From NCBI RefSeq assembly GCF_024298765.1, contig NZ_CP101210.1: 64,000 nucleotides of DNA, one strand, 5' to 3'. This document shows, piece after piece, positions 1 to 7,240 of the stretch. Within the stretch, counting starts at the first letter, position 1. Every line of letters begins with the position of its first letter. This DNA is from Escherichia coli. GTDB taxonomy: Bacteria; Pseudomonadota; Gammaproteobacteria; Enterobacterales; Enterobacteriaceae. The notes under the pieces are model-generated. The model saw only the letters and a list, made by a program, of their open reading frames with translations, did not search any database and was not told the DNA's origin. A program made the position numbers and the translations under genes.

Positions 1-1713
1 GAGAAAGCGGTAGTGCGTTATGCCCGTGAACATAATCTCGGCAAGATTATTCTCGGTCGCCCGGCTTCGCGCCGCTGGTGGCGTCGGGAAACATTTGCTG
101 ACCGGCTGGCACGCATCGCCCCCGATCTCGATCAGGTGCTGGTCGCGCTTGATGAACCACCCGCCCGCACGATTAACAACGCGCCGGATAGCCGCTCTTT
201 TAAAGACAAGTGGCGGGTACAGATTCAGGGATGCGTGGTTGCCGCCGCGTTATGCGCCGTTATCACCTTAATTGCCATGCAGTGGCTGATGGCGTTTGAT
301 GCCGCCAACCTGGTGATGCTGTATCTACTTGGCGTGGTGGTGGTGGCGCTATTTTATGGACGCTGGCCTTCGGTGGTTGCTACCGTCATTAATGTGGTGA
401 GTTTCGATCTCTTTTTTATCGCCCCACGCGGCACGCTCGCCGTCTCTGATGTGCAATATCTGCTGACCTTCGCGGTGATGTTAACCGTCGGGCTGGTGAT
501 CGGGAACCTTACTGCTGGCGTGCGTTATCAGGCGCGGGTAGCCCGTTACCGCGAACAACGCACACGGCACTTATATGAAATGTCCAAAGCTCTGGCTGTG
601 GGCCGTAGTTCGCAGGATATCGCCGCCACCAGCGAACAGTTTATTGCCTCCACGTTTCATGCCCGTAGCCAGGTGTTGCTGCCTGATGACAACGGTAAAT
701 TGCAGCCGTTAACACATCCGCAAGGAATGACGCCGTGGGACGATGCCATCGCGCAGTGGAGTTTTGATAAAGGTCTGCCTGCGGGCGCGGGCACCGACAC
801 GTTACCCGGTGTACCGTACCAGATTTTGCCGCTAAAAAGCGGCGAGAAAACCTACGGACTGGTGGTGGTGGAACCGGGGAATCTGCGCCAGTTGATGATC
901 CCGGAACAGCAGCGCCTGCTGGAGACGTTTACGCTGTTAGTCGCCAATGCGCTTGAGCGGCTGACGCTGACCGCCAGCGAAGAACAGGCGCGGATGGCAA
1001 GCGAACGTGAACAGATCCGCAACGCTCTGCTGGCGGCGCTTTCGCATGATTTACGCACGCCGCTCACGGTGCTGTTCGGTCAGGCAGAAATCTTAACGCT
1101 CGATCTGGCAAGCGAAGGATCGCCCCACGCCCGCCAGGCCAGCGAGATTCGTCAGCATGTGCTGAACACGACCCGACTGGTGAATAATCTGCTCGATATG
1201 GCGCGAATTCAGTCCGGCGGCTTTAATTTGAAGAAAGAGTGGTTAACGCTGGAAGAAGTGGTCGGCAGCGCGCTGCAAATGCTGGAACCGGGTTTATCGT
1301 CGCCTATCAATCTTTCTCTGCCAGAACCGCTGACCTTAATCCACGTTGACGGGCCGCTCTTTGAACGGGTGCTGATTAATCTGCTGGAGAACGCGGTGAA
1401 ATACGCGGGTGCGCAGGCCGAAATTGGTATCGATGCCCACGTTGAGGGCGAGAAGCTACAACTGGATGTCTGGGATAACGGCCCCGGTCTTCCGCCAGGC
1501 CAGGAGCAGACGATATTTGATAAGTTTGCTCGCGGGAATAAAGAGTCGGCGGTACCGGGTGTAGGGCTTGGGCTGGCAATTTGTCGGGCGATTGTGGATG
1601 TACACGGCGGCACCATTACCGCGTTCAACCGACCGGAAGGTGGTGCCTGTTTTCGTGTTACACTTCCCCAGCAAACCGCTCCTGAACTTGAAGAATTTCA
1701 TGAGGATATGTGA
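1..1713 (+). CDS. kdpD: Sensor histidine kinase KdpD, C-terminal ~566 aa; 5' end lies upstream of the window
   Basis: Frame 1 is open from base 1; His-kinase H-box (SHDLRTPL) and ATPase motifs (DNGPG, GLGL) present; overlaps kdpE start by 4 bp. Confidence 0.95.
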   Translation, partial: EKAVVRYAREHNLGKIILGRPASRRWWRRETFADRLARIAPDLDQVLVALDEPPARTINNAPDSRSFKDKWRVQIQGCVVAAALCAVITLIAMQWLMAFDAANLVMLYLLGVVVVALFYGRWPSVVATVINVVSFDLFFIAPRGTLAVSDVQYLLTFAVMLTVGLVIGNLTAGVRYQARVARYREQRTRHLYEMSKALAVGRSSQDIAATSEQFIASTFHARSQVLLPDDNGKLQPLTHPQGMTPWDDAIAQWSFDKGLPAGAGTDTLPGVPYQILPLKSGEKTYGLVVVEPGNLRQLMIPEQQRLLETFTLLVANALERLTLTASEEQARMASEREQIRNALLAALSHDLRTPLTVLFGQAEILTLDLASEGSPHARQASEIRQHVLNTTRLVNNLLDMARIQSGGFNLKKEWLTLEEVVGSALQMLEPGLSSPINLSLPEPLTLIHVDGPLFERVLINLLENAVKYAGAQAEIGIDAHVEGEKLQLDVWDNGPGLPPGQEQTIFDKFARGNKESAVPGVGLGLAICRAIVDVHGGTITAFNRPEGGACFRVTLPQQTAPELEEFHEDM

Positions 1714-2387
1714 CAAACGTTCTGATTGTTGAAGATGAACAGGCTATTCGTCGCTTTCTGCGCACGGCGCTGGAAGGCGACGGTATGCGCGTCTTTGAGG
1801 CCGAAACGCTGCAACGCGGCTTGCTGGAAGCGGCTACCCGTAAGCCAGATTTGATTATTCTCGATCTCGGCCTGCCCGATGGTGATGGGATTGAGTTTAT
1901 CCGCGACCTGCGCCAGTGGAGCGCGGTGCCGGTGATTGTGCTTTCCGCACGTAGCGAAGAGAGCGACAAAATCGCCGCGCTGGATGCCGGAGCGGATGAT
2001 TATCTGAGTAAGCCGTTTGGCATTGGCGAATTGCAGGCCCGTCTGCGCGTCGCTTTACGTCGCCACTCCGCCACCGCCGCGCCCGATCCGCTGGTGAAAT
2101 TTTCCGATGTTACCGTCGATTTAGCAGCTCGTGTGATCCATCGGGGCGAGGAAGAGGTGCATCTCACCCCGATTGAGTTCCGCCTGCTGGCAGTGTTGCT
2201 TAATAATGCGGGAAAAGTGCTCACCCAGCGCCAGCTCCTTAACCAGGTGTGGGGGCCAAACGCGGTCGAACACAGTCATTATTTGCGTATTTATATGGGG
2301 CATCTGCGACAAAAACTGGAACAGGACCCGGCCCGGCCTCGCCATTTTATTACTGAAACCGGTATTGGGTATCGGTTTATGCTTTGA
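1710..2387 (+). CDS. kdpE: Response regulator KdpE (GTG start)
   Basis: 225-aa OmpR-family regulator with receiver domain (LIVEDE...DLGLPDGDG) and winged-helix C-terminus; translationally coupled to kdpD. Confidence 0.95.
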   Translation: MTNVLIVEDEQAIRRFLRTALEGDGMRVFEAETLQRGLLEAATRKPDLIILDLGLPDGDGIEFIRDLRQWSAVPVIVLSARSEESDKIAALDAGADDYLSKPFGIGELQARLRVALRRHSATAAPDPLVKFSDVTVDLAARVIHRGEEEVHLTPIEFRLLAVLLNNAGKVLTQRQLLNQVWGPNAVEHSHYLRIYMGHLRQKLEQDPARPRHFITETGIGYRFML

Positions 2388-2424
2388 ATATTAATTTTAA
2401 TACATCCTGCCTTTTATTAATTAA

Positions 2425-2451
2425 AGCCGTAATAATAAATACGGCTTTTTA
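2425..2451 (+). terminator. Rho-independent terminator after kdpE
   Basis: Hairpin agccgt...acggct followed by a T-run. Confidence 0.6.
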
Positions 2452-2620
2452 TCTTAAACAACACACAAAAATAACAATTCAATATTTTATATTACTGAGT
2501 AAAAAGCTCATCATTAAATAAATTAAGATTGATCATTTTTTATTGATCACCTTCACAGTTCAACCGTATTTCCTGGATAGAATACCTTCACCTTCATTCA
2601 CATCAGGAAAGGTAAATTAA

Positions 2621-2725
2621 ATGGAAAATAACAGCCGCACTATGCCCCATATAAGGCGGACAACTCATATTATGAAGTTTGCTCATCGCAATAGCTTCGA
2701 CTTTCACTTCTTCAATGCCCGTTAG
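2621..2725 (+). CDS. speFL: speF leader arrest peptide SpeFL (34 codons)
   Basis: Short ORF MENNSRTMPHIRRTTHIMKFAHRNSFDFHFFNAR about 260 bp upstream of the speF ATG; matches the ornithine-sensing leader peptide as I recall it; not in the ORF track because it is too short. Confidence 0.7.
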   Translation: MENNSRTMPHIRRTTHIMKFAHRNSFDFHFFNAR

Positions 2726-2982
2726 TCTACCGACTAAGGGCACTTCAGCGTACAGGTCTTCCTGACTCTCTGTATTACAGGCATATGCCTGTATTCCGCA
2801 GTGCTCATTCTCTGTTAACCCTTGTATTATCAGCCACCGGACTGATAAGGGTTTCTGCATTCTGAAAAAAGCAAACTTCTGATTAATTTATCAGCGGGGT
2901 AACTTTGCTTTTTTTCCGGCACGATCGATTTCTCATTCGAGAAATTGAGGACCTGCTATTACCCAAAATAAAGAGATGGAAA

Positions 2983-5181
2983 ATGTCAAAATTAAAAATT
3001 GCGGTTAGTGATTCTTGCCCGGACTGTTTTACCACGCAGCGAGAATGTATCTATATTAATGAAAACAGTAATATCGATGTGGCGGCAATAGTTTTATCGC
3101 TCAACGATGTTACACGCGGAAAACTCGATGAAATCGATGCCACGGGTTATGGCATCCCGGTATTTATTGCTACTGAAAATCAAGAACGTGTACCCGCAGA
3201 GTATTTGCCCCGTATTTCGGGTGTCTTTGAGAATTGCGAATCGCGACGAGAATTTTATGGTCGTCAGTTAGAAACCGCAGCCAGCCATTATGAAACGCAA
3301 CTGCGCCCGCCCTTCTTCCGCGCACTGGTCGATTATGTCAATCAGGGTAACAGCGCGTTTGATTGCCCCGGTCATCAGGGCGGCGAATTTTTCCGTCGCC
3401 ATCCCGCGGGGAATCAGTTTGTGGAATACTTTGGTGAGGCGCTGTTCCGTGCTGACTTGTGCAACGCCGACGTAGCGATGGGCGATCTGCTGATTCACGA
3501 AGGCGCGCCATGCATTGCACAGCAACATGCGGCAAAAGTGTTTAATGCCGATAAAACATACTTCGTTTTAAATGGCACTTCATCTTCTAACAAAGTGGTT
3601 TTAAACGCCCTGCTGACACCGGGTGATCTGGTGCTGTTTGACCGCAATAACCACAAATCTAACCACCACGGAGCGTTGCTACAGGCTGGCGCGACACCGG
3701 TTTATCTGGAAACCGCACGTAACCCGTATGGTTTTATCGGTGGTATTGACGCTCACTGTTTTGAAGAAAGTTACCTGCGTGAACTGATCGCGGAATTCGC
3801 ACCGCAGCGGGCAAAAGAGGCTCGTCCTTTCCGCCTCGCCGTTATTCAGCTAGGCACTTACGACGGTACGATTTATAACGCCCGTCAGGTGGTGGATAAA
3901 ATTGGTCATCTGTGTGACTACATCCTCTTTGACTCCGCATGGGTCGGCTATGAGCAGTTTATCCCGATGATGGCGGACTGTTCACCACTGTTGCTGGATC
4001 TTAATGAGAACGATCCGGGTATTCTGGTTACGCAATCTGTGCATAAACAGCAGGCTGGTTTTTCTCAGACTTCACAAATCCATAAAAAAGACAGCCATAT
4101 CAAAGGGCAACAGCGTTATGTACCGCACAAACGCATGAACAACGCCTTTATGATGCATGCCTCCACCAGCCCGTTCTATCCGCTGTTTGCCGCACTGGAT
4201 ATCAACGCCAAAATGCATGAAGGTGTCAGCGGTCGTAATATGTGGATGGATTGTGTGGTAAATGGCATTAATGCCCGCAAACTGATCCTCGATAACTGTC
4301 AGCATATTCGTCCATTCGTACCTGAACTGGTGGATGGTAAACCCTGGCAGTCGTATGAAACGGCGCAAATTGCGGTTGATCTGCGCTTCTTCCAGTTTGT
4401 ACCAGGTGAGCACTGGCATTCTTTTGAAGGCTATGCAGAGAATCAATACTTTGTCGATCCGTGCAAACTGTTGCTGACAACCCCAGGTATTGATGCACGT
4501 AACGGCGAATATGAAGCGTTCGGTGTACCCGCGACGATTCTTGCTAACTTCCTGCGCGAAAATGGCGTAGTGCCGGAAAAATGCGATCTTAACTCCATCC
4601 TCTTTCTGCTGACTCCGGCAGAAGATATGGCCAAACTTCAGCAACTTGTTGCTCTGCTGGTACGCTTCGAAAAACTGCTTGAGTCCGACGCGCCATTATC
4701 AGAAGTACTGCCTTCCATCTACAAACAGCATGAAGAGCGCTACACCGGTTATACCCTGCGTCAGTTGTGTCAGGAAATGCATGATTTGTATGCCCGTCAC
4801 AACGTGAAACAACTGCAAAAAGAGATGTTCCGTAAGGAACACTTCCCACGCGTAAGCATGAATCCACAAGAAGCCAACTACGCCTATTTACGCGGTGAAG
4901 TGGAGCTGGTTCGTCTGCCGGATGCAGAAGGCCGTATCGCTGCCGAAGGTGCGCTTCCTTATCCTCCGGGTGTGCTGTGTGTTGTTCCGGGTGAAATCTG
5001 GGGTGGTGCTGTTCTGCGTTACTTCAGCGCTCTGGAAGAAGGGATCAACCTGCTGCCAGGTTTTGCACCAGAGCTGCAGGGTGTCTATATCGAAGAACAT
5101 GATGGTCGTAAGCAAGTTTGGTGCTATGTCATCAAGCCTCGTGATGCGCAAAGCACCCTGTTGAAAGGGGAAAAATTATGA
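2983..5181 (+). CDS. speF: Inducible ornithine decarboxylase SpeF (732 aa)
   Basis: Large fold-type I PLP decarboxylase; start taken at MSKLKIAV with RBS aagaga upstream, not the extended ORF-track start at 2905. Confidence 0.95.
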   Translation: MSKLKIAVSDSCPDCFTTQRECIYINENSNIDVAAIVLSLNDVTRGKLDEIDATGYGIPVFIATENQERVPAEYLPRISGVFENCESRREFYGRQLETAASHYETQLRPPFFRALVDYVNQGNSAFDCPGHQGGEFFRRHPAGNQFVEYFGEALFRADLCNADVAMGDLLIHEGAPCIAQQHAAKVFNADKTYFVLNGTSSSNKVVLNALLTPGDLVLFDRNNHKSNHHGALLQAGATPVYLETARNPYGFIGGIDAHCFEESYLRELIAEFAPQRAKEARPFRLAVIQLGTYDGTIYNARQVVDKIGHLCDYILFDSAWVGYEQFIPMMADCSPLLLDLNENDPGILVTQSVHKQQAGFSQTSQIHKKDSHIKGQQRYVPHKRMNNAFMMHASTSPFYPLFAALDINAKMHEGVSGRNMWMDCVVNGINARKLILDNCQHIRPFVPELVDGKPWQSYETAQIAVDLRFFQFVPGEHWHSFEGYAENQYFVDPCKLLLTTPGIDARNGEYEAFGVPATILANFLRENGVVPEKCDLNSILFLLTPAEDMAKLQQLVALLVRFEKLLESDAPLSEVLPSIYKQHEERYTGYTLRQLCQEMHDLYARHNVKQLQKEMFRKEHFPRVSMNPQEANYAYLRGEVELVRLPDAEGRIAAEGALPYPPGVLCVVPGEIWGGAVLRYFSALEEGINLLPGFAPELQGVYIEEHDGRKQVWCYVIKPRDAQSTLLKGEKL

Positions 5182-6497
5182 GTCAGGCTAAATCGAATAA
5201 GATGGGCGTCGTTCAGTTAACCATACTGACGATGGTCAACATGATGGGCTCCGGTATCATCATGCTGCCGACAAAGCTTGCCGAAGTTGGGACAATCTCA
5301 ATTATCTCCTGGCTGGTGACAGCCGTAGGCTCAATGGCACTGGCATGGGCATTCGCAAAATGCGGTATGTTCAGCCGTAAATCAGGCGGTATGGGCGGTT
5401 ATGCGGAGTATGCTTTCGGTAAATCCGGGAACTTTATGGCGAACTACACCTACGGTGTCTCGCTGCTGATTGCTAACGTCGCGATTGCTATTTCGGCGGT
5501 TGGTTACGGCACCGAACTGCTCGGCGCGAGTTTGTCGCCAGTGCAGATTGGTCTTGCGACCATCGGAGTGCTGTGGATTTGTACCGTGGCTAACTTTGGT
5601 GGTGCGCGCATTACCGGGCAAATCAGTAGCATTACTGTGTGGGGGGTCATTATTCCGGTCGTCGGTCTGTGCATTATCGGCTGGTTCTGGTTTAGCCCGA
5701 CGCTATACGCTAACTCATGGAACCCGCACCATGTGCCGTTCTTTAGCGCTGTAGGTTCTTCCATCGCCATGACGTTGTGGGCTTTCCTCGGTCTGGAGTC
5801 AGCCTGTGCCAACGCCGAAGTAGTTGAAAACCCGGAACGTAACGTGCCGATTGCAGTTCTTGGCGGTACTTTAGGTGCGGCGGTGATTTATATCGTCTCC
5901 ACCAACGTGATTGCAGGGATAGTGCCTAATATGGAGCTGGCAAATTCAACGGCACCATTTGGCCTGACTTTCGCACAGATGTTCACGCCAGAAGTGGGTA
6001 AAGTCATTATGGCGCTGATGGTGATGTCCTGCTGCGGTTCACTGCTTGGCTGGCAGTTCACCATTGCCCAGGTGTTTAAATCTTCATCTGATGAAGGCTA
6101 CTTCCCTAAAATTTTCTCCCGTGTAACCAAAGTGGATGCACCGGTTCAGGGAATGTTGACCATTGTGATTATTCAGAGTGGATTGGCACTGATGACCATT
6201 AGCCCGTCACTGAACAGCCAGTTCAACGTGCTGGTTAACCTGGCCGTGGTGACCAATATCATTCCGTATATTCTGTCGATGGCAGCATTAGTCATTATTC
6301 AGCAGGTCGCTAATGTGCCACCATCAAAAGCGAAAGTAGCAAACTTTGTTGCCTTTGTTGGTGCGATGTACAGTTTCTATGCGCTGTACTCATCCGGGGA
6401 AGAAGCCATGCTGTACGGTTCCATCGTGACCTTCCTTGGTTGGACACTGTATGGTCTGGTCTCACCACGCTTTGAACTGAAAAATAAACACGGTTAA
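5178..6497 (+). CDS. potE: Putrescine-ornithine antiporter PotE
   Basis: 439-aa polytopic APC-family transporter; 4-bp overlap with the speF stop. Confidence 0.95.
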   Translation: MSQAKSNKMGVVQLTILTMVNMMGSGIIMLPTKLAEVGTISIISWLVTAVGSMALAWAFAKCGMFSRKSGGMGGYAEYAFGKSGNFMANYTYGVSLLIANVAIAISAVGYGTELLGASLSPVQIGLATIGVLWICTVANFGGARITGQISSITVWGVIIPVVGLCIIGWFWFSPTLYANSWNPHHVPFFSAVGSSIAMTLWAFLGLESACANAEVVENPERNVPIAVLGGTLGAAVIYIVSTNVIAGIVPNMELANSTAPFGLTFAQMFTPEVGKVIMALMVMSCCGSLLGWQFTIAQVFKSSSDEGYFPKIFSRVTKVDAPVQGMLTIVIIQSGLALMTISPSLNSQFNVLVNLAVVTNIIPYILSMAALVIIQQVANVPPSKAKVANFVAFVGAMYSFYALYSSGEEAMLYGSIVTFLGWTLYGLVSPRFELKNKHG

Positions 6498-6512
6498 TAA
6501 AGCAAAGTAAAA

Positions 6513-6545
6513 AAGGGCGATTGAATGGTCGCCCTTTCTGTTTGT
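6513..6545 (+). terminator. Rho-independent terminator after potE
   Basis: Hairpin gggcga...tcgccc followed by a T-run. Confidence 0.6.
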
Positions 6546-6577
6546 TGACAAAGAGTTCTTTATTTATGCCGCATCCG

Positions 6578-6722
6578 GCAGGTGTAGGATCCAAACGCGG
6601 TCGGACACAGCAACTATTTGCGTAATTATATGAGGCATTTGCGACAAAAACTGGAACAGGATCTCGCCCGCCCCGCCATTTCATTACTGAAACCAGTATT
6701 GGGTATCGGTTTATGCTTTGAA
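6578..6722 (+). repeat. Degenerate direct copy of the kdpE 3' end (about 90% identity to 2243..2389)
   Basis: Aligned by eye: caggtgt..ccaaacgcggtcg..ttgcgacaaaaactggaacagga..attactgaaacc.gtattgggtatcggtttatgctttgaa; kdpE reading frame is lost after an indel. Confidence 0.85.
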
Positions 6723-6844
6723 AAAAGTGGCATTGTATGGATAAAGTCATTTTTTATTCACATATAAGGAACTTAATATTTAAAAAATGTCCCATACAAT
6801 GCCTCATCATAAATGACACCGTAGCATACAAGGAGCAAGTAGCG

Positions 6845-7240
6845 ATGCGTGATTGGACACAACGCCCTGAATTCGCAAGCGTGCGGGCTTTACCCATCGC
6901 CGATGATGTCGCAGGGGGAATTTTCTTAATGGTGGCGATCTTGGGGAAGATACTGGCTGCGTTTATTATTTTGCGCCAGATACGCTGATTTGGGAAAGTC
7001 TGGAGGTTGGATATTCTGAGTTTCTTCAGTGGGCATTATCCGGTGATTTAGATACCTTCAATGAAAATGTACGCTGGCCGCAATGGCAAGAAGACGTAAT
7101 AAAATTATCGGCAACGGAAGCCTTCACTTTCTACCCTTTCTTATGGGTACAAAGTGAAGAAGCAAGAACAAGAAAAGTTATTTCGCTTACTGAACTCTGG
7201 GAAATGCAGTATCAAATGAAAGAAACATTCACGCAATAAG
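6845..7240 (+). pseudogene. Frameshifted ORF remnant (ybfG-like); N-terminal 47 codons in one frame, about 100 further codons in another frame with no start
   Basis: ORF MRDWTQRPEFASVRALPIADD... ends at 6988; the adjacent frame reads ...FAPDTLIWESLEVGYSEFLQWALSGDLDTFNENVRWPQWQEDVIKLS...KETFTQ* without an ATG. Confidence 0.3.

Follow-up and report, generated by a model that had tools for sequence, protein, structure and literature searches.

SpeFL and Comparable Leader Systems

The closest described systems for the locus reported here are the leader peptide SpeFL of Escherichia coli K-12 (b4803) and orf34 of Salmonella, and their mechanism was established experimentally both for the E. coli peptide (bioRxiv 10.1101/604074) and for orf34 (PMC6386406). 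Ornithine-dependent, puromycin-resistant stalling at codons 33/34 was shown for the former, a cryo-EM structure contained the bound ornithine, and speF-lacZ expression in E. coli was made constitutive by bicyclomycin (bioRxiv 10.1101/604074). In S. Typhimurium, the orthologous 34-codon uORF has its start codon at +32 of the mRNA and is accompanied by a hairpin at the stop codon, downstream of which Rho-dependent termination occurs, and the 3′ part of the ORF pairs with the speF ribosome-binding site (PMC6386406). A further comparison is offered by TnaC of the tnaCAB operon, which likewise binds a free amino acid within the exit tunnel, prevents a release factor from acting at the stop codon, and hides a Rho site to permit downstream transcription. 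TnaC senses tryptophan, however, and is unrelated in sequence; its ligand and binding site differ, and it acts on RF2 at UGA, whereas SpeFL acts on RF1 at UAG. It is a mechanistic analogue only and not a member of the family.

Identification of the speFL Gene

The window (the whole 64-kb stretch of E. coli DNA that was analysed) carries a 34-codon ORF between kdpE and speF, in the following arrangement:

1710..2387, plus strand: kdpE, the upstream neighbour (Pfam Response_reg and Trans_reg_C; annotated as kdpE in an identical strain).
2423..2453, plus strand: terminator-like hairpin and T-run after kdpE, found by scanning (9-pair stem, T-rich tail), which separates the kdp operon from the speFL unit.
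2621..2725, plus strand: speFL leader ORF, 34 sense codons with ATG start and TAG stop, coding for the ribosome arrest peptide that senses ornithine.
2983..5181, plus strand: speF, inducible ornithine decarboxylase and the regulated gene (Pfam OKR_DC_1_N, OKR_DC_1, and OKR_DC_1_C; annotation).
5178..6497, plus strand: potE, putrescine-ornithine antiporter and second gene of the operon (Pfam AA_permease_2; annotation).

The ORF is translated as MENNSRTMPHIRRTTHIMKFAHRNSFDFHFFNAR. A preliminary description had taken it for SpeFL and proposed comparison with the published peptide; this comparison gave 34/34 identical residues (E = 7.6e-20) against the chain named SpeFL in the ornithine-stalled ribosome structures (PDB 6TBV/6TC3). 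The RefSeq entry WP_211180488.1, "leader peptide SpeFL", is likewise the same peptide, and this accession is common to the K-12 speFL gene. E. coli genomes matching the window at up to 100% identity carry the speFL annotation for this ORF. The spacer between speFL and speF, both on the plus strand, is 257 nt, a distance also given in the discovery paper (Herrero del Valle et al., bioRxiv 10.1101/604074), and it agrees with the assignment as the RefSeq entry does. An exhaustive search of protein representatives with the peptide retrieved 13 cluster representatives, all of which were SpeFL-like. The Pfam family PF10940 (SpeFL) aligned to residues 8–33 of the 34-aa query with 23.8 bits (E = 4e-5) against a gathering cut-off of 25, and the NCBIfam models gave no match to the peptide; the exact match to the PDB chain outweighs the score 1.2 bits below the Pfam cut-off. 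The first 9 kb of the window holds 116 ORFs of at least 25 aa, so the length of speFL is not significant by itself. Its identity to SpeFL, as judged from the peptide comparison, is far beyond chance.

We are close to certain that 2621..2725 is speFL, the leader of a speFL-speF-potE operon, and that the 85-aa ORF on the opposite strand, the former ybfK, is not a gene. None of the data contradict the speFL assignment. The gene is already known and well studied, and the finding is correct but ordinary: nothing in it is biologically new, as the SpeFL mechanism has been solved at 2.7 Å and the K-12 annotation has already been corrected.

Compared with K-12, the window has the identical 34-aa peptide, ORF nucleotides that are identical by eye in the alignment, the UAG stop codon, the AGG-CGG codons, the 257-nt spacer, and the flanking kdpE and potE genes. 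The differences are at strain level only and lie beyond the ORF, the 597-nt intergenic regions being 98.2% identical. In contrast, the published Salmonella leader is longer, with the speF AUG at +516 (PMC6386406) versus approximately +394 here, and two non-enterica Salmonella loci have spacers of 378–379 nt versus 257 nt. The stop codon reported for S. Typhimurium is UGA (PMC6386406), whereas that of the window is UAG.

Functional Residues, Codons, and Selection

Two domains of the peptide were assigned as follows:

2645..2668, plus strand: codons 9–16, Pro9 and HIRRTTH, the sensor-domain loop that recognises ornithine (from the sequence, with motif and mutational data of bioRxiv 10.1101/604074).
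2660..2722, plus strand: codons 14–34, the effector domain (from the sequence, with residue roles from the literature).

The stretch P9-H10-I11-R12-R13-T14-T15-H16 fits Pro9 followed by the HIRRXXH motif at residues 10–16. The effector-domain residues Phe20, Phe26, Phe28, Phe30, Phe31, and Asn32, the last of which adjoins the peptidyl transferase centre, are all present. Two consecutive rare Arg codons, AGG (2654–2656) and CGG (2657–2659), occupy positions 12–13, and the same pair is found at codons 12–13 of Salmonella orf34 (Ben-Zvi et al. 2019, PMC6386406).

A comparative set of 72 Enterobacteriaceae loci was compiled, 71 of which had a complete ORF and 66 enough downstream DNA. The length of speFL was 34 codons in 71/71 complete loci, and speF followed on its 3′ side in 66/66 loci at a distance of 197–381 nt (mode 253–259). 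F26, F28, and F31 were unchanged in 72/72 loci, while F30 was replaced by Leu in the Enterobacter group and F20 by Val in Cedecea. The SpeFL peptide is under strong purifying selection: variable sites were counted at 28 of the 34 third codon positions, as compared with 8 first and 6 second positions, and pN/pS was 0.058 for the 72 loci. The latter was recomputed against ascertainment bias by leaving out the ten codons that the search pattern had fixed, which gave 0.072 and left the outcome unchanged.

Transcription and Translation Signals

The following signals were located around speFL:

2574..2584, plus strand: TGGATAGAATA block with a −10-like TAGAAT (2578–2583), putative speFL-speF promoter, assigned by inference.
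2605..2612, plus strand: speFL Shine-Dalgarno sequence AGGAAAGG, 8 nt 5′ of the ATG, read from the sequence.
2739..2750, plus strand: match to the pause consensus G−11 G−10 ... C−1 G+1, from comparison with the published element.

A consensus promoter scan flagged nothing upstream of speFL. The TGGATAGAATA block is invariant in six Escherichia sequences despite the strong divergence of two leader haplotypes around it. Since Salmonella orf34 begins at +32 of its mRNA (PMC6386406), speFL transcription would start near 2590. An alignment of 55 species contains an A/G-rich AAGG/GGAG block at the position of the speFL Shine-Dalgarno sequence and conserves G2739 and G2740 of the pause element at 90% or more. 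The Rho-terminated short transcript is predicted to end at approximately 2749, which corresponds to approximately 160 nt if the start is 2590; the short transcript of Salmonella is 157 nt (PMC6386406).

Structure of the Leader RNA

The minimum free energy (MFE) fold of the leader contains the following elements:

2716..2742, plus strand: hairpin whose 5′ arm contains the speFL stop codon, the published RNA polymerase pause hairpin.
2770..2801, plus strand: leader element with the palindrome 2776–2793 as its core.
2817..2853, plus strand: leader helix H3, two stacked stems.
2864..2915, plus strand: leader helix H4, an A-tract/GCAAA stem with UUUGC/U-tract that encloses a small CUGAU/AUCAG stem.
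2925..2948, plus strand: leader helix H5, a 10-bp hairpin.
2699..2712, plus strand: speFL codons 27–31, predicted anti-RBS segment that pairs with 2971–2987 when speFL is untranslated.
2971..2987, plus strand: speF Shine-Dalgarno region and AUG (2983–2985), the 3′ partner of this long-range helix.

The leader fold has a z-score of −3.65. Among the 55 species, the whole named structure was 82.7% paired versus 38–46% in slid controls, although the percentage is biased upward relative to the controls because the structure was taken from the window's own MFE fold. The compensatory counts are free of this bias, and pairs with double changes numbered 45 versus 23–31 in the slid positions; the observed structure values were reached by 0/500 shuffles. 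For the individual elements in the same 55 species, the stop-codon hairpin, which has been described for E. coli (bioRxiv 10.1101/604074) and Salmonella (PMC6386406), was paired in 77–88% of cells with compensatory changes at 3 pairs. The core helix of 2770..2801 was 88.8% paired with compensatory changes in 4/7 pairs, and a functional role of this element was demonstrated in Salmonella (PMC6386406). Compensatory changes were found at 12/12 pairs of H3, where one of the differences between the window and K-12, an A-to-G change, keeps the pairing. H4 was 84% paired, its outer pairs being compensatory in 9/12 cases, and H5 was 93.5% paired with 7/10 compensatory pairs. The leader helices downstream of speFL are hence supported by covariation. 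The long-range helix between speFL and the speF RBS was paired in 88% of cells, but only 1 pair was compensatory, since each strand is under further constraints of its own; the equivalent helix of Salmonella was confirmed by compensatory mutations (Ben-Zvi et al., PMC6386406). A scan of 2200–3200 against Rfam with E-values up to 1 returned no family.

Model for the Control of speF-potE

In the following model, which was established experimentally for the identical peptide in K-12 and for Salmonella orf34, the peptide identity, motif residues, rare codons, spacing, synteny, purifying selection, and covariation-backed helices were computed here, and ornithine-dependent stalling, Rho dependence, and the transcription start are taken from the literature. 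The transcript would begin approximately 30 nt 5′ of speFL, and RNA polymerase would pause at the stop-codon hairpin. When ornithine is low, the 34-codon ORF would be completed and the peptide released by RF1 at UAG, exposing a C-rich Rho-loading region that overlaps the 3′ part of speFL, whereupon Rho would end transcription just past the hairpin; the untranslated 3′ part of speFL could also pair with the speF ribosome-binding site. When ornithine is high, one L-ornithine molecule would be held between the 23S rRNA and the sensor domain of the nascent chain (Pro9 and HIRRXXH), upon which the Phe-rich effector domain would compact, Asn32 would displace U2585, and RF1 would be blocked. The stalled and queued ribosomes would then mask the Rho site and prevent the anti-RBS segment from pairing, leading to transcription and translation of speF and potE. 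The rare AGG-CGG codons would slow translation and tune the system; in Salmonella, they also link it to arginine supply and RNase G decay.

These tandem rare codons, conserved at positions 12–13 here and in Salmonella, raise the alternative that speFL is mainly a classical attenuator that gauges arginine by codon supply, and not an arrest peptide that binds ornithine. Such an attenuator draws on the arginine-dependent destabilisation of the Salmonella transcript via alternative structures and RNase G (Ben-Zvi et al., PMC6386406), and that model's DS hairpin and long-range helix are both predicted in the window and conserved. We nevertheless consider it unlikely. Selection is strong along the whole peptide, which a pure codon sensor would not require, and stalling is lost with a double-frameshifted template (bioRxiv 10.1101/604074) and lost or impaired by point mutations of H10, I11, R12, R13, H16, F26, F28, F30, and F31. 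Ornithine was, moreover, seen bound in the cryo-EM structure, and arginine/RNase G control has been demonstrated for Salmonella alone, where the spacer is longer. We regard the arginine effect as a layer added to ornithine sensing and not as a replacement for it.

A second alternative concerns H4, whose A-tract/U-tract helix (2864–2915) could be an intrinsic (Rho-independent) attenuator, forming a second checkpoint between speFL and speF. The terminator scan flagged its 3′ part (2893–2909 followed by TTTTTTT), and both the helix and its U-run show conservation, with compensatory changes at 9 pairs. However, the conserved fold pairs the U-run with the upstream A-run, which is atypical for a terminator, and the flagged stem has only 3 G-C pairs. 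No Rho-independent terminator was found in the Salmonella leader, and bicyclomycin alone restores its read-through (PMC6386406); the constitutive expression of E. coli speF-lacZ under bicyclomycin speaks against an intrinsic attenuator in the same way. This function of H4 is therefore improbable.

The Antisense ORF Formerly Called ybfK

Opposite speFL lies a longer reading frame:

2603..2860, minus strand: 85-aa antisense ORF with ATG start, the former K-12 call ybfK, judged to be a non-coding shadow frame over speFL and the structured leader.

Its codons are exactly in register with those of speFL (2621 − 2603 = 18), and it spans the whole of speFL together with 135 nt of leader further downstream. 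The preliminary description had suspected a historic mis-call, and this view holds, as does its reading of 2621..2725 as SpeFL. The ORF corresponds to K-12 ybfK by map position, as a 2017 paper draws "ybfK >" beside "< kdpE" and describes the spacer as downstream of both genes. It also corresponds by its Thr codons, since the published ybfK counts (PMC7521043) match the K-12 copy exactly for in-frame ACA (2), out-of-frame ACA (2), and ACG (1), as well as for ACC (0), ACU (0), and upstream ACA (0). The latter source was considered as protein evidence for YbfK and rejected, as its table is a purely computational control. The call has since been withdrawn: ybfK is absent from the current K-12 record NC_000913.3 and the re-annotated W3110 record NC_007779.1, which list speFL. 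A literature search for "b4590" gave unrelated papers only.

No sign of protein coding in the antisense frame emerged from the comparative tests. Its length is unremarkable, because the 64-kb window contains 141 ORFs of at least 85 aa; 50 of the 90 with lengths of 85–199 aa are nested in a longer ORF of another frame. The frame is open because it runs in register opposite speFL, which is without TTA, CTA, and TCA codons, and it happens to run on for 45 more codons through the leader. This arrangement resembles other shadow ORFs in its exact register with the true gene and its inverted selection, with the difference that 135 of its 258 nt lie over non-coding structured leader RNA.

Could ybfK be a real protein-coding gene, perhaps young and lineage-restricted, at a locus that codes on both strands? 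The window and K-12 both have an unbroken ORF, the two products differing at a single residue, at least 1000 contigs still carry it as an automatic gene prediction, and the chance that 135 nt beyond speFL contain no stop is only approximately 0.05 in shuffled leader composition. A transposon screen by Price et al., the sole published hint of a function, also listed YbfK as important for fitness at an expression below 1 ppm (ribosome-profiling-based estimates). Against this, the 30 nt upstream of the antisense ATG (TAAATTAATCAGAAGTTTGCTTTTTTCAGA) contain no Shine-Dalgarno-like motif, the scan of 2300–3100 found no minus-strand promoter-like site, Pfam and NCBIfam gave no family match, and the sequence cluster of the ORF carries only "hypothetical protein" names. 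Its pN/pS in the 72 loci was approximately 2.2 (2.3, or 2.1 on the unbiased codon subset) versus 0.06–0.07 for the sense frame. An in-register antisense stop occurs at speFL codon 7 in 29/72 loci, and the longest antisense ORF opposite speFL measures anywhere between 22 and 127 aa, its ends not being conserved; in E. albertii it starts elsewhere and has 70 aa, and it has 45 aa in the O157/Nissle-type leader, which is present in 3318/5426 E. coli genomes. The part beyond speFL overlies the plus-strand RNA helices with compensatory changes, and the fitness effect could equally stem from disruption of the speFL leader. Taken with the withdrawal by the K-12 curators, these observations make a ybfK gene highly improbable.

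The locus is a textbook annotation case, in which a functional 34-codon leader was masked by a longer spurious ORF on the opposite strand, and the old ybfK call distorted later analyses. In the 2017 paper, an RpoS-holoenzyme peak beside "ybfK" was assigned to a class that the authors excluded when estimating promoters, since its apparent position was downstream of the genes on either side. Price et al. included "YbfK" among unexplained fitness genes of low abundance. Their fitness call does not show that YbfK protein is made, and the sequence offers no explanation for this listing. Very weak translation of the antisense frame, confined to the K-12-type haplotype and yielding a young protein restricted to that lineage, would account for the transposon fitness signal if true, but we regard it as very doubtful.

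Two Leader Haplotypes in E. coli

E. coli carries two deeply diverged alleles of a leader block of approximately 1 kb. Different induction thresholds of speF-potE conferred by the two alleles would be a likelier outcome than low-level translation of ybfK. The count of loci of the window type is low because this second, diverged haplotype exists; absence of the locus from two thirds of E. coli was considered as another explanation and rejected, as speF was found in 5040–5125 of the 5426 genomes. Among the E. coli genomes with speF, the K-12-type leader accounts for 34% and the O157/Nissle type for 66%.

Identity of the speFL Reading Frame

The short ORF between kdpE and speF had been described from its sequence as encoding the arrest peptide SpeFL, and comparison with the published sequence bore this out, the SpeFL chain of PDB entries 6TBV and 6TC3 being identical to the window peptide at 34/34 residues (E = 7.6e-20). 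The surrounding genes were assigned by their Pfam domains, and the region is arranged as follows.

Reading frames and signals of the speF leader region
1710..2387, kdpE, upstream of speFL
2603..2860, minus strand, antisense ORF, ATG start, 85 aa
Ending 8 nt before the speFL ATG, plus strand, Shine-Dalgarno sequence AGGAAAGG, read from the sequence
2621..2725, plus strand, speFL, ATG start, 34 sense codons and TAG stop, translation MENNSRTMPHIRRTTHIMKFAHRNSFDFHFFNAR
2723-2725, plus strand, speFL stop UAG, read by RF1 according to Herrero del Valle et al.
2983..5181, speF, downstream of speFL
5178..6497, potE, downstream of speFL

The speFL–speF spacer is 257 nt, the same figure as in the discovery paper of Herrero del Valle et al. 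(bioRxiv 10.1101/604074). The 597-nt kdpE–speF intergenic region found matches in 1706 complete E. coli genomes with identity up to 100%, and in matching genomes the ORF is annotated as "leader peptide SpeFL". K-12 derivatives share the protein accession WP_211180488.1 with the identical strain, and in NC_000913.3 the locus tag is b4803. The earlier observation on both ORFs was confirmed and its interpretation supported; speFL is an already known feature, for which curated annotation has already been corrected. NCBIfam and Rfam gave no match for the speFL ORF or its region, and the Pfam SpeFL model PF10940 (formerly DUF2618) scored the window peptide at 23.8 bits against a gathering cut-off of 25, so that the reference E. 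coli SpeFL would be missed by Pfam-based annotation.

The sensor domain reported for SpeFL, Pro9 followed by HIRRXXH at residues 10–16, reads P9-HIRRTTH in the window. All effector-domain residues are likewise present, namely the core Phe20, Phe26, Phe28, Phe30 and Phe31, and Asn32, which displaces U2585 (Herrero del Valle et al.). The rare Arg codons 12–13 are AGG-CGG (2654-2659), the same pair as in orf34, the Salmonella leader ORF.

Conservation of speFL across Species

When 1.84 billion representative proteins were searched exhaustively with the SpeFL peptide, without a profile, only 13 cluster representatives were returned, of which 13/13 were SpeFL-like. A degenerate DNA pattern for PHIRRTTHIM, applied to one-genome-per-species bacterial assemblies, gave 72 loci, nearly all labelled Enterobacteriaceae with three exceptions (Mixta, Collinsella and Chryseobacterium). 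speFL was exactly 34 codons long in 71/71 complete loci, ending in TAG or TAA. In each of the 66 loci whose sequence extended far enough downstream, speF came next in the same orientation, at a gap of 197–381 nt (commonest 253–259). Among 68 distinct nucleotide sequences, 28 of the 34 third codon positions were variable, compared with 8 first and 6 second positions. The pooled pN/pS was 0.058, and 0.072 when recomputed without codons 9–18, which the search pattern had fixed. Two of the exceptional loci probably reflect contaminated or mislabelled public assemblies: a 2.2-kb "Collinsella sp." MAG contig (L040, JAIJJM010000551.1) carries E. coli kdpE-speFL-speF at 97–99% identity, and a 647-kb contig labelled "Chryseobacterium sp. 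18061" (L057, CACSKA010000002.1) carries an enterobacterial kdpE-speFL-speF locus.

Leader RNA Structure and Mechanism

The minimum free energy (MFE) fold of 2590-3010 had −114.4 kcal/mol (z = −3.65) and contained the following elements.

Predicted elements of the MFE fold
2699-2712 with 2971-2987, long-range helix between speFL codons 27–31 and the speF Shine-Dalgarno/AUG region
2716-2742, hairpin containing the speFL stop codon
2770-2801, downstream hairpin
2817-2853, 2864-2915 and 2925-2948, three further leader helices

This predicted fold mirrors the Salmonella leader architecture, for which Ben-Zvi et al. (2019, PMC6386406) verified the corresponding long-range helix with compensatory mutations and showed that the downstream hairpin matters. 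Its pairs were counted on a 55-species alignment, with slid partners and 500 shuffles as controls. Standard pairs occupied 82.7% of cells versus 38–46% with slid partners, a contrast inflated by taking the structure from the window's own fold, and both-side changes occurred at 45 pairs versus 23–31, compensatory counts being free of that inflation; the observed pairing values were reached by 0/500 shuffles. The long-range helix was 88% paired with only 1 compensatory pair over the 55 species. In helix 2864-2915, which is conserved and has 9 compensatory pairs, an A-run pairs with a U-run (AAAAAAGCAAA...UUUGCUUUUUUU). Towards the 3′ side of this helix, 2893-2909 followed by TTTTTTT was flagged as terminator-like; an intrinsic terminator was reported to be absent from the Salmonella leader (PMC6386406).

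The published ornithine-arrest mechanism is the best-supported explanation for the window speFL, for which stalling, Rho dependence and the transcription start rest on experiments with the identical peptide. At low ornithine the ribosome would terminate at the UAG, after which Rho would load on a stretch of RNA that overlaps the speFL end, halting transcription shortly past the hairpin. At high ornithine, one ornithine molecule would be trapped by the nascent peptide and 23S rRNA and RF1 would be blocked, whereupon the stalled and queued ribosomes would mask the Rho site and allow expression of speF-potE. Between ~2630 and 2770 C exceeds G (ratio 1.3–1.8), and the pause consensus quoted by the discovery paper is matched at GG 2739-2740 and C/G 2749/2750; as sequence features these fit, but do not prove, the published Rho model. 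The Salmonella study added two elements: the RBS is released from sequestration, and an arginine/RNase G layer operates via the tandem Arg codons (PMC6386406). An arginine layer is possible in E. coli, as an extra to ornithine arrest and no rival to it.

The Antisense ORF

The preliminary description had also taken the 85-aa antisense ORF for a probable historic mis-call, and this held: the ORF is the former K-12 gene ybfK, which is absent from the current MG1655 and W3110 records, where speFL is listed. The identification agrees in position with Shimada et al. 2017, who placed "ybfK >" beside "< kdpE" and defined the spacer as downstream of both transcription units. Furthermore, the K-12 copy has exactly the Thr-codon counts published in 2020 for the EcoCyc sequence of "uncharacterized protein YbfK" (ACA 2 in-frame, 2 out-of-frame and 0 upstream; ACG 1, ACC 0, ACU 0; PMC7521043).

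Signals of coding were absent. There is no Shine-Dalgarno sequence before the antisense ATG, no minus-strand promoter-like site was found in a scan, and no protein family was assigned in Pfam or NCBIfam. The antisense-frame pN/pS was 2.3 (2.1 on the unbiased codon subset), and an in-register stop (TTA, CTA or TCA) lies at speFL codon 7 in 29/72 loci. The longest antisense ORF over speFL ranges from 22 to 127 aa across loci with ends that are not conserved, as in E. albertii, where it has 70 aa and a different start. The ORF is in exact codon register with speFL (2621 − 2603 = 18) and spans all of it plus 135 nt more of the speFL–speF region, this second part overlapping the covarying plus-strand helices. 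The frame is open over speFL because speFL contains no Leu codon and no TCA, and the chance of the next 135 nt staying open, ~0.05, is unremarkable because such ORFs are numerous. ORFs of 25 aa or more number 116 in the first 9 kb, and those of 85 aa or more number 141 in the whole window. Of the 90 ORFs of 85–199 aa, 50 have at least 80% of their length within a longer ORF of another frame; ORF length by itself carries no meaning in the window.

Two published observations are attached to ybfK. In a transposon screen, YbfK was one of six proteins listed as "important for fitness" although they were expressed below 1 ppm (Price et al. 2016); insertions in the ybfK interval would also disrupt speFL and the leader, which may explain this puzzle. 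Shimada et al. 2017 also mapped a SELEX peak of the RpoS holoenzyme to K-12 coordinate 720060, within the "ybfK > < kdpE" spacer, and assigned it to type C, which is for sites downstream of both genes and does not enter their promoter estimate. With speFL in place of ybfK, the peak (window ~2600) would lie just upstream of speFL. This conversion of coordinates uses an offset that we take to be 777 bp.

Two Leader Haplotypes and Loss of the Operon

The window's leader was found at full length in only 1699 E. coli genomes, while speF is present in 5040–5125 of 5426; a second leader allele (O157:H7, Nissle 1917 and others) occurs in 3318. The K-12-type SpeFL begins MENNSRTM and has the 257-nt spacer; the O157-type begins MENNNRLM (WP_001312672.1) and has a spacer of 310 nt with a ~51-nt insertion, and its antisense ORF has only 45 aa. 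Divergence is limited to window ~2300-3300 (1295-2300 of L077, an O157-type locus), with 38–88% identity versus mostly 90–100% in the flanks, and thus defines a ~1-kb block from the kdpE end to about speF codon 105. The window leader (2590-2982) is 83–84% identical to Citrobacter and 74% to the other E. coli allele (leaders compared: L023, L028, L032, L052, L060, L004 and L019), and for the O157-type leader the highest identity is with E. albertii (87%). Such identities suggest that recombination brought in the K-12-type block from a source outside Escherichia; the sampled genomes do not include the donor.

In O157-type loci, RefSeq lists a 44-aa "hypothetical protein" (L077 1456-1590 and L078 1457-1591, both plus strand); its frame differs from that of speFL, overlaps both the start and the promoter region of the latter, and is probably another spurious short call. 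Within the O157-type insertion, ~39 nt (L077 ~1792-1830) have ~95% matches to other chromosomal sites in some genomes, which hints at a small dispersed repeat, presumably resembling the end of ERIC/IRU elements. Past potE, window 6500-7100 diverges completely from O157:H7, and the identical strain carries there frameshifted winged-helix and DUF2625 pseudogenes (K-12 ybfI and ybfG). Few E. coli genomes have lost the operon, among them that of strain KL53 (L076, NZ_CP030919.1, 6001-6830), where IS1 lies 80 bp past kdpE and speFL-speF-potE is missing.
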